Below are positions 41,783 to 48,095 of a stretch of 64,000 nucleotides of DNA, piece by piece. Position numbers and translations under genes: made by a program. The notes under the pieces were generated by a model that saw only the letters and a list, made by a program, of their open reading frames with translations, was not told the origin of the DNA and ran no database searches. The DNA lies in contig CP120459.1 of the NCBI GenBank assembly GCA_034226945.1, positions 806,001 to 870,000 of the forward strand, in the 5' to 3' direction. Each line of letters begins with the position of its first letter. The first letter of the stretch is position 1. This DNA comes from Picochlorum sp. SENEW3. Taxonomy: Eukaryota.

Positions 41783-43976
41783 TTACCAATCGTCAAAATC
41801 GTCTTGTTGGATGTCGGATGAGGACAGTTTCTTGGCTCCGAGGCGCATGGCGGTCTTCTTTGGGGCTGGGGATGTCCGCTCTTGCTTCTTCTGCGGGACG
41901 CTTTTTCGGAGGGGTTTTCGAGCCGTGGTTCCTTGAGCGGATGCTGCTGATGGCTTCAGGCTTACAGCATTTAGTTTTGCTCTTGCTTGGCGTTCTGCAG
42001 CAACCGCATCCATCATGTCTTCCAACACATCATCATCATCATCATCCCACCCGTCACCAACAGTTGACACTTCGGGAGTAGAGGATGGTGGAGGCATCGA
42101 AGAAGAATCGTTGCTGACGTCTGGGATTCTATCAGACGTGTCTCGTGCATGTTGAATCATGGTGGGAGGGCTGCTGTCGACCTGTTTTGCCCCCCATCCA
42201 AAGCTTCCCATCATGCTATTCTGTTCGTTGGGCTGTTTTGATTCTTCCAGAGAATCTTGGTGTGTTTTGACAACCTGAACAAACTCTTCCACGCACACCA
42301 TGGCCAATTTTCGCACCTCATAGACGCTGTCAATGCATAGTGGGGATATCATTGGAATCACTTTTGAGGCAACATCCTCTGCATCATGGAGCGTGGCAGT
42401 GGTCTGTAAGGATTTGAGTGCTGCGATTCGAGCAGGAGGGAATGGGTCTTTTAACGCTCGAGACATTGCATTAAGCATGACCTTTTTCCTGGTCGACTCA
42501 CTGAAACTTGTCGCCAGAGTGCCCAACAGAATGGTGGTGTTTGCACGGATTCCTGGTTCCTCATCCACCTGAAGCTTTGCCAGAAATTTGAGCAGGTTTT
42601 GGTTCAATGTCCTGGCGCTCAACTTGGGACCCAATATCACCATACTTTTAAGTGTCAATTCACGAATGTACGGGTTCACGTCGGTAAATCCACCCTGCAG
42701 CTTTGGATATATCTGTTCCTCAATGAGCTGGTTTGGCAATTCAGGTCCAAACGAGTGGATATTTTCCAACAAGCACCGTCGAATGCTTCTATCAGTCGAG
42801 CTGAACATTTTCGTGATAACAGGTACAACGACTTTTTCTTTCTCTTCGTGCGTTAATGATTTTGAAATGTTCATGAGAACTGCCAACGCGCTGGGTGGCG
42901 CACCACCAAATTCCAGCGCTGCTGCCAAGAGTGGCAAAATTTTCCTCTGTGCGATGGGTTCAGGGACATCGGCTAATTTTGTACTCAGTCTCTGGAAAAA
43001 GCTTTCCTTCTCGATACTATCCTTCATGGCCAAATTTTGCAGAAAGGTCACGACGACTAACAAATCATTCTTCAGTACACCAGATTCCAGCAACGCTGAA
43101 GGATTCAGCCTCTTTGCTGGCTGACTTGCGAGCATCTTTTGGTAATATGGCTTTAATTTCTGAGGAACACAATCGATCTTTTTTAAATCTTCCATCGCAC
43201 GCAACGCACTATTGGAAAACGTCTCCTGAATCAAGCATCCCAGGCCCCATGCATCGACAGCCCATGGTGGAGAGTCTGCAATCACATCCCACTCTGACCT
43301 TCCAAGCTCACCAGATTTATACTGTGTACTTACAAGCCATGTAGAAGCGAGCAAAGGAGGACTTGTACTCAGGTTTCCGACAACAGCATGCTCGGTTGTC
43401 AAATCAAATGCATGCAGTTTCCAATCCAGAGTCTCCGTCACTGCCACAGATAAACTACACACATTCCCATGAATAAGCCCACAATCGTTATTTAAAAATG
43501 ACACTGCAGAGACTATCTGCTCCAATCCCATCATTAGAAACTTTTCTCTGTCACGCTCGTTCAAATCAAGGCTTGTCTGAACATACTCTAGGGACGTCAC
43601 AGCTTCTGTCACCAAATATATGACAAACTCCCCACGCTCCTCAATCTCAACCGTATCGATAAATCTCAGAATATTAGGATGTTTCAGCTGCATAAAGCGA
43701 CACAGAGGTGCGCATGTGAGCTCTATCGTTCACGATCTCAACAACGGCAGAACGAACACACACCATTTTCAATCTTTTCACGCCATTCCGAGCGGCAATC
43801 AACATAGGATCCAGCTCTCCCTTTGCTGATATCCTAAAGATGGATACAGAAGAGCCATCTGCATTCAGGACACCGGAGGAGTGCGTCCAGTGTCCCCAAC
43901 CCCTACCGTACTCTTGAACAATCTGGAACGGCAGAGCGCTCGAAGAACCAACCAATGCTGATAATTTCGCAAACAT
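41783..43976 (-). CDS. SCYL1: SCY1-like pseudokinase with HEAT repeats (SCYL1/CEX1); exons 43976-43764, 43687-41783
   Basis: ARNGVKRLKM|LKHPNIL; IHGNV; VDAWGLGCLI; LQVDEEPGIRANTTILLG; RALKDPFPPAR. Confidence 0.92.
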
Positions 43977-44096
43977 ATTGTGTCAAGTATTCAGCTAACG
44001 CATACAATGGCGCTCATGGCAGTATGGTTACCAAAAACTGAAAGTCGGTACGTTTACCAACGCTCACAGGCGTATCTATTCGCCTTTGTGAGTCTC

Positions 44097-44183
44097 TGTA
44101 ATAAAATATAGATGTATCAAAATATACGAGCATCAGGGTGCGTTGAATGGGATGGGCGTGGCATCAGAGTTTGGTGCTGGATC
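44097..44183 (-). repeat. Diverged copy of the purple acid phosphatase 3' end and 3'UTR (direct repeat of 46148-46236)
   Basis: Aligns by eye with about 10 substitutions and one 2-nt indel; encodes DPAPNSDATPIPFNAP* versus DPAPNSDAKPIPLNAP* in the intact gene. Confidence 0.9.
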
Positions 44184-44362
44184 AAATAATAATAGTGACG
44201 CCATGTCCAGGGTTCTATTGTTTTGGTGTTGCAGAGCTTGCAATCTTTAGCGAGGGAATGGGCTGCCCGAGAAGACCATGTTGGCAACTCTCCAGCAGCA
44301 GCAGTAGCAGTCTCGATGGTTGAGCAGATCAATAGAATCATCAAATCTCAAGAGCCCGGGAA

Positions 44363-44991
44363 ATGCAGAGTTATGAAAGCACTGACAAGGAGGTTGTAGG
44401 CATTCATGTGGGTTAGGCGGTATGTTTTTAAGCAGTAACCCACGACGCCTGAAGGAGTCAATTCATGTCCCTGGAAAGAAGACAGAGGAACAGGATAGAT
44501 TTGAGACGTACACATTCTCATTGGTGGTCAGTGGAGCTTTGATAGTGGTATTATCAGCAAAGGTACACAAGTATAATGAAAGCCGGCAATTTCGTTCGAG
44601 ACATGGGTCCCTGCCCAACCGCAAAAAAACCACTGATGTTGGTGCTCTCACGAAGTCGTACCGATTCATGAATCAGAGATGGTCGAGTGCTTCAGATGCA
44701 CCTGAAGCTGGTGGGTTAGAGAATGTGTTTTTCATGGCACTCTTTGGTTTAAGAAGAAGCAATGGATGCAGCAATACTCCAGGCGACAGAGAGAGCAGTG
44801 AAGAGAACGCCATAGCTAAGGCATTGAGAACATTCAAACTTGAAGAGCAAAAGAATGTGATTGTAACGTATGGTGATGGCTGTCCAAGAACACCACATAT
44901 GAAGGGTGTTGTACCATTTATGAATGGTCGATTTGACCGTACGGTCATGACCGTCCACCGGTGGACGTTCAACATTTTGACCTCCATTTGA
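44363..44991 (+). pseudogene. Degenerate Fanzor/TnpB-like RuvC nuclease remnant (putative mobile-element relic)
   Basis: KEVVGIHVG* (44387-44416) resembles RuvC-I VVGIDxG with D->H and a stop. The shifted frame 44422-44991 has LPNRKKTTD..., LFGLRRSNG..NT...SEENAIAKALRTF...KNVIVTYGDG....HMKGVVP, in the order of the Fanzor segment preceding RuvC-II. Confidence 0.55.
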
Positions 44992-45211
44992 CTTCCATGA
45001 ACTTGGATGTATCCAATAATCCAATAATCTCAGTGCCTGTATTGAAAAAGTATTATCAATATTACCGGGTAAATGAAATAGTGTGACTGAAATAGGGAAA
45101 TAAGTAGCCTTTTACATTTGAAATTGAGAGACGTCGACTTTCAGTGACAACGTCCAGACTGCCGCGTTTCAATCATCCGTGTGGAAAAATAGTATTCTAA
45201 AAACGCACTAA

Positions 45212-45937
45212 ATGGCAAGAAATACCAGGGATCTGGCGATACTGCTGTTGGAAGGAGGATGTTCTCGACTTGTTTTGCCTCCAGGTACAGGTGAGGAGCT
45301 CTATACGTTTCTGGAAATGTGCCGCGAGAATAAAGCATCTCGTCAGCACGTGAGTCCGTCCAGTAAATTGGACACCTTGTGGCACTGGATGCTGCTCAAC
45401 ACGGACGTGTCGACTTGCGTGCACGAAGCTTTGGGGGGGATTGTACCACATAGCACATCAACAGAGTCAGATTCCTTGGAGAAGAAGAACAAAAGAAGGC
45501 GACTTTCCATGAAACTGATGACTTCCATGGGGTATTCTCCTAATCCAGAGCTTTGGGACGATGACTCCTCAGGAGAAGAGCAAAAAAGAAATAATGGCGA
45601 CTCTTGCTACGAGGGTGATTTATCCAATGGTCACAGATCCAGACGTCGGGGCTCTTCTATCCAGAGCCACATCTCCTTGTCGGGAAGAAAGAAGGAAAAA
45701 ACATTTCGAGTCAATGTGCGGACCCTGACAGGAAAAGACATCGTAGTGGACGGCTTGACCGCTTCTACCACTGTGGAGAGACTCGTGTCAGCATTGGAAA
45801 ACACGGAAGGGATTCCACAAGACAAGCAGGTTCTAGCTTATGAAGGAAGGCGATTAAGTCGTGACAGGACTCTTGAAGAGTCTGATGTCGTTCATGATGC
45901 AACAATTGATCTCTTTGTGGAGCAGAGCGGCTGTTAG
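45212..45937 (+). CDS. Intronless protein: GRDP-like N-terminal domain plus C-terminal ubiquitin-like domain
   Basis: SPSSKLDTLWHWMLLNT...GGIVPH...PNPELW; C-terminus VNVRTLTGKDI...EGIPQDKQVLAYEGRRLSRDRTLEESDV..DATIDL ending SGC. Confidence 0.75.
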   Translation: MARNTRDLAILLLEGGCSRLVLPPGTGEELYTFLEMCRENKASRQHVSPSSKLDTLWHWMLLNTDVSTCVHEALGGIVPHSTSTESDSLEKKNKRRRLSMKLMTSMGYSPNPELWDDDSSGEEQKRNNGDSCYEGDLSNGHRSRRRGSSIQSHISLSGRKKEKTFRVNVRTLTGKDIVVDGLTASTTVERLVSALENTEGIPQDKQVLAYEGRRLSRDRTLEESDVVHDATIDLFVEQSGC

Positions 45938-46147
45938 ATGTTGTTTAAGCAGGCACTCGTACTAAACTCAGTTCCTTGTATGATGAGGAACCGATAAAAG
46001 AACAAACCATTTTAATATGTACGAATTAACATCTCCTTGCATTTGAGATTCAATTGCATTCTATTGACGCCTTGCTTGTATTATATTTAAAATGAAAACT
46101 TTTGCATTGGAGAGGAACAATAATATGCTCCCAGTCATCATGCTGGG

Positions 46148-46236
46148 TGTAGTAAAATATACAGATGTGTCAAAATATACGAGCGTCAGGGAGCGTTCAA
46201 TGGGATGGGCTTTGCATCAGAATTTGGTGCGGGATC
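46148..46236 (-). repeat. Second copy of the direct repeat (authentic phosphatase 3' end)
   Basis: Matches 44097-44183. Confidence 0.9.
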
Positions 46237-48095
46237 CACTCCCATAATAATCTTGTCATTGCAGCCATTCTGAGGATTCTTTGCAAACACGACACGATCA
46301 GCATACGCCATGGTGCCAGAGTCCTGCAACCAATTGATCTTCCACTCGGCGTGCGTTGCATTCACTATATCAAGCATACCAAATGCGTATCCTTGTGCTC
46401 TAAAAGTAGACCATGGTGCTTGCGTCTCAAAGCAGAAGGGCGTTTCTGTGTTCAGGAATGGCTCTGGCTCGTAGTTTGGTTGGTATACTGCTGGGTCCCA
46501 GTAGCTAATGTTGGAACAGAATTTGGCGGGTTTTGGATTGTCAGGACGCAAAATATCGACGTATTCAATGTCGAGATCAACCCCACCTCCGCCAACCGTT
46601 GCATAGACTGGTCCACAACTGTTTGGCTTGAAATTGAACACGGGTGGTGAACGATCATAGCCATGCGCATGTCCATGGAATACAAAATCAACCTGATACT
46701 CGAAAAACAAAGGCTCAAAGTACTTTTGCATCAACTGAACCTCCTTGTAATGCTCTACAAACGTACTATAGTATGGGGCGTGGAACATGACGATAATCCA
46801 GTGTGTTGTTTCTCTGTCCAGTGATGTCATATCTTTGACAAACCATTTGTACATCTCACTTCCATTACCATATGGTACATACGTGTTTAAACCTACAATA
46901 TGCAAAGGACCGATGTCGACGCTGAAATACGTGTTGTTGGTGACGACACTGTTTGAGACCTCTGGGGGGACAAACGCAGTCTGGCCTGGGAACAGCGATT
47001 GGTCCCAGTACAGTGGCGCCTTGTTGGCTGCCACGTTCACGATATCAACATCCCTTGGCATTGGAAATCTGGAGTTGAATGATAAATTAGTTAGATTGTT
47101 CCTCAATGTGAGAGATTCGAGTTCATGATTTCCGGAAACAGCGAGCACAGGGATTTTAGAGAAGAGGGGTTGTAAAAAGCGCCCATATGAATCCCAGTAT
47201 GGTTGATATGAGGTAAATTGGTCGGCCTCCTTCTTATACGCTCCTTTTTTCGCAGTACCGTTTCCCAGGAATTTGTCCGCGTAACAAAAATCGCCGGCAA
47301 CAAGAATCATATCGGGCCCATAGTCGATCAAAGCATCACGCAACTGGGTTGTGTTGTACGTCATACTCGTGTCTGCCCACACCCCAACGCTGATTGGGTA
47401 CTGGTTCTTCGGCATTTTCAGCTCCAAAGTATCACTCCATCCATACGAAAGACTTCCAACTTTGTAGTAGTAGGTTTGGCCGGGGTTGAGACCATCGACA
47501 ACGACATGGTGGAGTATAGGACTCTGATACACACTGGGCTCCCCATCAATTGCGCCAGATAGGATATTGTACTCATAGCTGTACACAGTCTTGGCACAAA
47601 CAGACTTTTTCACATCCATCCGAGTCGCTTTATCATCTCCATACACGATCGTGTCGAGAAAATACTTGGACGTACCATACCTGACAATGCTGGGCACCAT
47701 TGAGGGATCATAGGCCTTTGGGGCATTTCCCACCCGCCCTTCTCCGGTGGCCCACGAGACAAGTACCGACGTCTCGGACCACGGAGTCACATGAATTTGA
47801 TCCGGTGAGAATTCAGTGCCGACATGAGGGAGGTCGCTCAATGGTATCCTCGCGTTCCGGCTTGCCTCTTCCTCTGACACAAAAATGCTGCAGTTACACG
47901 CCTACTCATGGTCACTCTGTTGTCCACGCGGGCCTTGTATGGCTGAATACCGTACGTTCGATTCAATGGTGCATTACCGACAGGATATTCAATAAGCAAT
48001 AGGTCACGGGAGGCCAGGTGACGTGCAGCCCCTACACGGCCACAGAACAGCACGAGGCACCCGATCAGGAACAAGCGCTGCTGGGTTTGATCCAT
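46186..48095 (-). CDS. Secreted purple acid phosphatase (FN3-like plus metallophosphoesterase); one intron, 47888-47955 or alternatively 47874-47950
   Basis: Signal peptide LFLIGCLVLFCGRVGAA; metal-ligand motifs WAD, GDFCYAD, GNHE, VMFHAPYY, GHAHGY. Confidence 0.92.

Follow-up and report, generated by a model that had tools for sequence, protein, structure and literature searches.

Does the spacer between two host genes of the green alga Picochlorum sp. SENEW3 hold the remains of an RNA-guided nuclease, and if so, of which family, in what state, and with what intact relatives? The question was raised by an earlier note, made by eye from the raw letters of a 64,000-nucleotide stretch of DNA (termed here the window), which proposed a decayed Fanzor/TnpB-like relic in an algal housekeeping region. 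Fanzor1 proteins are eukaryotic, TnpB-like RuvC nucleases that are guided by omega-RNA and carried by mobile elements. The analysis described here indicates that positions 44229-44940 of the window, perhaps extending to about 45050, are very probably a fragment of a dead Fanzor1 gene that has been truncated at both ends (Table 1).

Table 1. Features of the relic and its surroundings (positions are those of the window).
Feature	Positions	Strand	Basis or remark
Fanzor1 pseudogene fragment, core (very probable)	44229..44940	+	Frameshift-aware alignment, tblastn, and profile matches in frames +1, +2, and +3
RuvC-I motif VVGIHVG, then stop	44393..44416	+	Codon of the catalytic Asp is CAT (His); TAG at 44414 in place of the Lys of GIDMGK
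VTYGDGCP, Fanzor-type "rearranged" RuvC-II strand (VAYGD in relatives)	44863..44886	+	Best preserved motif
Candidate vestige of the RuvC-II Glu region and first zinc-finger CxxC	44941..45052	+	Non-significant score; possible, unproven
Left neighbor, host SCY1-like kinase/HEAT-repeat gene	41783..43975	-	Pfam HEAT and Pkinase; N-terminal exon MFAKLSALVG... by eye
Right neighbor, host gene with C-terminal ubiquitin domain	45212..45937	+	Pfam ubiquitin, E 2e-13
89-nt repeat, copy A	44097..44183	-	Directly left of the 5ʹ break of the fragment; reads DPAPNSDATPIPFNAP, a stop, and 3ʹ-UTR-like sequence
89-nt repeat, copy B	46148..46236	-	True 3ʹ end of the purple acid phosphatase gene, from 16 codons before the stop to about 38 nt after it

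The peptide readings on which the proposal rested, together with the CAT and TAG codons that it quoted, are all present in the sequence. The frame that opens with ATG at 44363 translates as MQSYESTDKEVVGIHVG followed by a stop, with CAT at 44405-44407 and TAG at 44414-44416, and a 201-codon stop-to-stop frame (44386-44991) contains SLPNRKKTTD, FFMALFGLRRSNGCSNT, SEENAIAKALRTF, KNVIVTYGDG, and PHMKGVVPFMNG. Comparison of the 189-aa frame at 44422-44988 with 87 candidate proteins returned two with E <= 10: a 133-aa protein (P0001; 82% identical and itself decayed) and a 318-aa protein (P0002), the latter at E 2.7e-22. In the reverse direction, tblastn with P0002 on the whole window found this locus only (E 1e-26 in frame 1 and 1e-8 in frame 3). 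Furthermore, a profile hidden Markov model of 21 relatives, scored unfiltered over the window's six frames, produced colinear matches at the locus in frames +1 (E 9e-14), +2 (E 0.002), and +3 (E 0.009), and nothing better than noise (E 6) elsewhere in the 128 kb of six-frame translation; the profile includes P0002, a fairly close relative, and its E-values in the window are therefore not independent of the E 2.7e-22. On these alignments, the homology of the fragment is far beyond chance. The lack of a significant match to Fanzor/TnpB RuvC regions in any frame, which the earlier note had named as grounds for giving it up, was looked for; three colinear frames matched, and the proposal was not refuted. 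Its assignment to Fanzor/TnpB-like proteins is borne out both by the match to P0002 and by the agreement of the family profile with solved Fanzor1 structures, described below.

Pfam gave no family at E <= 1 for the window's own frames (201, 118, 120, and 66 aa). Since Pfam is blind to these frames, a Pfam search alone would have wrongly refuted the finding. The frames of 118 and 120 aa are overlapping antisense open frames on the minus strand (44673-45111), over the 3ʹ part of the relic; they too lack a Pfam match and probably arose by chance.

To place the lesions, a protein-to-DNA alignment that allows frameshifts was written for this analysis. Against P0002, it joined 44226-44940 to residues 1-231, with identity at 141 of 226 positions (62%). 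Against P0180, a longer cluster-mate of 540 aa that is cut by its contig, 141 of 224 residues were identical and the bounds were 44229-44940, corresponding to residues 224-453 of that protein. The core thus spans from the helix before RuvC-I to just short of the RuvC-II Glu. The locus given in the earlier note was correct; its start, at the ATG, was not, as homology begins upstream at 44229 in frame 3 (LQSLQSLAREW..VSMVEQINRIIK). Decay is also heavier than was described there, amounting over 712 nt to eight frameshifts (near 44349, 44450, 44515, 44553, 44627, 44734, 44793, and 44801) and two in-frame stops (TAG at 44414 and TAA at 44429). With this number of lesions, the 201-codon frame is a mosaic of ancestral-frame and out-of-frame stretches, and its hydrophobic segment YTFSLVVSGALIVVLSA is out-of-frame read-through.

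The catalytic residues tell the same story of inactivation. The Asp of the RuvC-I motif (V/I)GID.G is invariant in the 21 relatives (D753 in the numbering of P0004, a full-length relative) and is His in the window copy, which marks the latter as a dead descendant and not a working member of the family. The description of the locus as an inactivated copy thus holds on three counts: the Asp-to-His change, the stops, and the frameshifts. At the rearranged RuvC-II strand, G910 is invariant among the relatives and A908 and D911 are nearly so. As a separate observation, a segment of some 45 residues occurs twice in tandem in P0180 (residues about 172-260), immediately ahead of RuvC-I (SHLESLNSLANEW..LVEQIDTMI, then SHLESLKSLASEW..MVEQINRII), and the window relic begins within the second copy.

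Large parts of the gene are missing on either side. In four relatives of 913-1014 aa, the match to the window is confined to 44455-44940 and to their residues about 673-935, and because full-length relatives match only in part, about 700 N-terminal codons are missing from the fragment. The longer relative P0180 likewise finds no homology upstream of 44229, and the REC/WED part is absent. At the other end, the earlier note had the zinc finger and RuvC-III missing, and no significant match occurs after 44940. The C4 zinc finger that follows [TS][TS]-x-x is absent from the window copy except for a non-significant LSAC vestige, and the RuvC-III Asp (RD..NAA.N) has no match after 44940 in any frame, R981, D982, and N984 being invariant in the relatives. 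The tail at 44941-45211 scored at best 35 against the C-termini of five relatives, which is not significant against shuffled sequences (mean 26.2, sd 4.4, maximum 40), and relaxed alignment beyond 44940 gave noise-like matches only.

Several readings in this zone are nevertheless colinear with the family: VD at 44961, TSMN at 44991-45002, and SNNLSACIEKV at 45020-45052, which agrees at 7 of 11 positions with SMNCSCCIEKM of the relative P0003. The candidate reading of the RuvC-II Glu is VDV or VD plus a frameshift, in a tail whose alignment lies within the range of the shuffles. By sequence, a colinear vestige of the RuvC-II Glu and CxxC region after 44940 is possible. The specific reading VD(E)FN near 44961 found no support; GTGGAC there is half of a palindrome, and the tail aligns no better than shuffles. 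The palindrome itself is perfect and 14 nt long (44953-44966, GTCCACCGGTGGAC), and the 3ʹ break zone also holds tandem duplications at 44973-44995 (11-12 nt) and 45012-45027 (8 nt).

The family to which the fragment belongs is best seen in its intact relatives. P0002 carries VVGIDMG, VAYGDGCP, VDEYNTSKCCSCC, a second Cys pair, and WNRDVNAAINM, and it exceeds Pfam's own cut-off for PF07282 (27.7 versus 26.3 bits), the zinc-ribbon domain of Cas12f1-like and TnpB proteins. When P0002 was searched exhaustively against proteins, 881 passed E <= 0.001, of which 85 reached 1e-10 and 12 reached 1e-30; many of the proteins found are 600-1300 aa long and have the match at the C-terminus. Among 21 aligned relatives, PF07282 was detected in 20 at E <= 0.01, and residues invariant in all 21 include, in P0004 numbering, D753, E944, C951, C954, C969, C974, W979, R981, D982, and N984. 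The profile of these relatives matched the solved Fanzor1 proteins SpuFz1 of Spizellomyces punctatus (8gkh; E 9.8e-22), GtFz1 of Guillardia theta (9cer; E 1.9e-18), and PpFz1 of Parasitella parasitica (9cf0; E 1.1e-13), whereas Cas12f reached E 0.008 only. With SpuFz1, the N-terminal, middle (FGNSISTDG), and RuvC stretches align separately. Structure prediction points the same way: in a Foldseek search with an AlphaFold model of P0002 (59 sequences, mean pLDDT 89), ranks 1-7 were all Fanzor1 chains (E 1e-9 to 1e-6), followed by Cas12 variants, Fanzor2, Cas12f, and TnpB.

Motif spacing agrees with this placement. The available text of Bao & Jurka 2013 (PMC3627910) gives the Fanzor constellation as D-X(125,275)-[TS][TS]-X-X-[C4]-X(5,50)-RD, and P0004 shows it with D753, S947-S948-M-N-C951, C954, C969, C974, and R981-D982. 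Fanzors are additionally distinguished by a rearranged RuvC-II, in which, according to the portion consulted of Jiang et al. 2023 (PMC10530073), the canonical strand bears an inert residue and an alternative Glu lies downstream in (V/I)DE..(T/S)S. The relatives have a YGD strand and then the invariant E944, 34 residues past G910, an arrangement that, judged by motif and not by superposition, fits the rearranged form. By profile and predicted fold, then, the family of the fragment's relatives is Fanzor1.

The earlier note had also supposed that intact relatives exist in the lineage, and at the level of the genus they do: full-length relatives in Picochlorum are 913-1014 aa long. Clusters of the long relatives include members of 985-1014 aa on chromosome-sized contigs (982,574 and 969,068 nt) and a complete 1014-aa transcript labelled Picochlorum oklahomense. 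The long relatives are apparently intron-free single open reading frames, and, by eye, they have a basic N-terminus that resembles a nuclear localization signal (KKRKR).

A metagenome scan for related copies, made with an alignment of six closer sequences, found three loci (L001-L003). Their records share one accession prefix, and in each the contig begins partway through the gene. The three are 93-94% identical to one another until the similarity breaks off abruptly, at a common point 62-65 nt past the stop codon, and are unrelated beyond it. Their shared tail (L001:266-327, L002:220-281, and L003:139-200) ends in ...TTACTTGT, and the next base is A in all three. As judged from these alignments, the element sits at no fewer than three sites and has a defined right end, and ...TTACTTGT is a candidate for the right end of the element. 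The alignment of copies that had been suggested for defining element ends thus delivered a common right end in three related copies, but neither a left end nor a target-site duplication, the loci being cut at the contig start. Within the 3ʹ tail of a related copy, folding was no better than that of shuffled sequences (z +1.29), and Rfam at gathering scores gave no match in L001-L003; three near-identical copies (93%) have no power for covariation.

These relatives raise the prospect that a Picochlorum Fanzor1 family invaded long ago, left the relic behind, and remains active to this day, as the proteins of about 1000 aa with intact catalytic and zinc residues, the several 93%-identical copies, and the complete P. 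oklahomense transcript might suggest. This reading is held tentatively, at somewhat less than an even chance. If it is true, Picochlorum would carry a native programmable RNA-guided nuclease, with a guide located within the final 65 nt of the element or directly past them.

The surroundings of the relic are those of an ordinary host locus, and its placement in an algal housekeeping region was right: it is flanked by the SCY1-like kinase/HEAT gene, whose start lies about 250 nt from the fragment, and by the ubiquitin-domain gene, and it makes up most of the 1.2-kb spacer between these two divergent host genes. The ubiquitin-domain protein has 19 homologues and is 96% identical to a protein of Picochlorum sp. 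BPE23 and 58-79% identical to those of other Picochlorum, and on this comparison, its open reading frame is a conserved host gene that lies outside the element. All named homologues seen among the 19 matches are from Picochlorum. The protein has 241 aa and ends in ..EQSGC, not GG, and its 165-residue N-terminal part has no family. For the kinase-like neighbor, an ESM Atlas search returned mixed eukaryotic phyla, which gave no help with taxonomy. Further right, on the minus strand, lies a purple acid phosphatase gene.

A short direct repeat links this last gene to the edge of the relic. Its two copies, the only ones in the window, are 87.6% identical over 89 nt, and three of the five differences in the coding part are synonymous. 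By sequence comparison, copy A derives from the tail of the purple acid phosphatase gene, duplicated over a distance of 2 kb. A purple acid phosphatase paralogue beneath the relic was considered and rejected, as only the last 16 residues are duplicated. Copy A may be filler DNA from the repair event that deleted the 5ʹ part of the element, a suggestion drawn by inference only. Rfam gave no match at E <= 1 in 43500-46500.

The locus can be followed in other public data; of the 21 runs listed, none was of RNA. Contigs of four other runs (X4, X9, X12, and X10) cover it, joined to the same left flank, and carry many substitutions inside the fragment; the indels listed individually are of 6, 3, 6, 6, 2, and 5 nt, with a further 18 indels and 154 substitutions. 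Over the fragment, the contigs differ from the window in about 3-5% of letters and by 7-19 gaps, whereas most differ by about 1% over the ubiquitin-domain gene; a few contigs over that gene diverge further, perhaps because they belong to other species. Position 44414 is polymorphic, with A in some contigs of all four runs (AAG being the ancestral Lys codon), and the TAG stop is therefore young relative to the rest of the decay. P0001 stays in frame across the A-run near 44620, at which the window slips out of frame; P0001 lacks five codons (KNVIV) and begins in another frame, yet it shares the shifted C-terminal reading. P0001 is probably orthologous to the window locus. The variation fits an old insertion that drifts without selection in related lineages. 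In run X10, one contig of depth 2 passes from 46236, the end of the repeat, through 13 other letters to 44817 and would represent a haplotype in which about 620 nt of the relic are missing; a different X10 contig spans the relic continuously.

A history that would account for these features begins with the insertion, between the SCY1-like kinase and ubiquitin-domain genes, of an element whose protein product had about 1000 aa. Later deletions would have removed about 700 N-terminal codons (REC/WED) and also the last 70 or so codons, taking with them the zinc finger, RuvC-III, and the 3ʹ end, the expected position of a guide RNA. The remainder would then have drifted neutrally, replacing the RuvC-I Asp by His and accumulating at least two stops and eight frameshifts. 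As it stands, the relic is incapable of cutting DNA or binding a guide and is simply intergenic spacer. Both the sequence of insertion and deletion and the neutrality of the drift are inferred; as the window locus yielded neither element ends nor a target-site duplication nor a guide RNA, insertion as a transposon draws on the known biology of the family.

Other explanations place the fragment differently. Chance resemblance, with no relationship to Fanzor/TnpB at all, could point to the lack of a Pfam match for any frame of the window, but it is refuted by the E-values of 2.7e-22 and 1e-26 and the colinear matches in three frames, and its probability is practically nil. Exaptation of the fragment as a new protein-coding gene would make use of the 189- to 201-aa frame (44386/44422-44991) with its hydrophobic stretch. 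Such a frame is unusually long for a pseudogene, and the 133-aa gene call P0001 shares its C-terminal reading (RFDRTVMTVHRWT.NIL.SI); however, the frame is a mosaic made partly of out-of-frame read-through, the hydrophobic stretch included, it contains 2-nt and 5-nt deletions in contigs of other runs, no Pfam family corresponds to it, and P0001 itself starts in another frame without the five codons. A gene of this kind is thus very unlikely, and the 201-codon frame and the relative's "hypothetical protein" gene call leave a small chance of some expressed product.

An origin as a piece of an integrated giant-virus genome, in place of a cellular transposon, is about as improbable as exaptation. 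The ESM-Atlas clusters nearest to full-length P0004 are mostly Nucleocytoviricota (score 0.97, a lead only), and relatives are encoded on giant-virus contigs. These viral relatives are, however, just 26-30% identical (8 loci in an alignment-based search), a scan of viral contigs for close relatives returned none, the genes on either side are conserved host genes, and nothing else in the window matches the profile. A role for the relic DNA as a retained spacer, promoter, or 5ʹ-UTR of the divergent kinase-like and ubiquitin-domain genes would be compatible with a dead Fanzor; it is unlikely, though less so than the preceding alternatives. The relic occupies the gap between divergent host genes in a compact genome and is found in the same place in the contigs of the four other runs, but none of the present results favors a regulatory function, and the fragment is more variable than the neighboring ubiquitin-domain gene. 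The preferred explanation therefore remains a decaying Fanzor1 fragment.

Taken by itself, the locus is inert debris and should be annotated as a pseudogene fragment, not as a "hypothetical protein". It is also an instance in which a true Fanzor relic, missed by Pfam on the window's frames, was recognized by reading motifs by eye in raw DNA. The part worth following is the undescribed, apparently intact and transcribed, multi-copy Fanzor1 family of Picochlorum. Species of this genus are fast-growing industrial algae with uses in biotechnology. For them, a native RNA-guided nuclease and its mobile element would matter in practice, as a tool for genome editing and also as something that could destabilize the genome. 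Picochlorum, like Auxenochlorella and Chlorella, is a trebouxiophyte.

The part consulted of Bao & Jurka 2013 (PMC3627910) places Fanzor1 and Fanzor2 in Chlorophyta (Chlamydomonas, Volvox, and Chlorella vulgaris), stramenopiles, fungi, amoebae, animals, and large DNA viruses, and RNA-guided cleavage by Fanzors was shown in 2023, as stated in the sections seen of two reports (PMC10432273, PMC10530073). In green algae, Fanzors are sporadic, and the most abundant repeat of Auxenochlorella encodes one, according to the text available of a 2025 study (Plant Cell 2025, PMC12636532). Fanzors and their relics have thus already been described in green algae, and the window relic is ordinary transposon debris. 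A literature search found no description of a Picochlorum Fanzor in the portions of the papers available, and the supplementary tables of the 2023 papers may list one.

Set beside known systems, the intact relatives of the fragment most resemble Fanzor1 (8gkh, 9cer, 9cf0). Both have a long N-terminal part, a WED-like FGNSISTDG stretch, and a C-terminal RuvC domain with a C4 zinc finger, and both show the constellation of Asp, Glu, four Cys, and Arg-Asp, with a YGD strand that, by motif, replaces the canonical RuvC-II Glu. Identity of the relatives' family to the solved Fanzor1 proteins is low (15-19%). Unlike Fanzor1, the window copy is reduced to about a quarter of the gene, with the His, the stops, and the frameshifts and with neither zinc finger nor RuvC-III. 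The Fanzors of other green algae (Chlamydomonas, Volvox, Chlorella vulgaris, and Auxenochlorella) are similar by description, being, in the passages available (PMC3627910, PMC12636532), likewise sporadic, multi-copy, and part of mobile DNA in Chlorophyta hosts. TnpB of IS200/IS605 (ISDra2 TnpB, 8h1j) and Cas12f share the RuvC and zinc-ribbon core (PF07282) with the family, and their folds match at E 1e-4 to 1e-3. These matches are much weaker than those to Fanzor1, however, and the family differs from both TnpB and Cas12f in the size of its proteins (about 1000 aa versus about 400) and in its Fanzor-type arrangement of RuvC-II.
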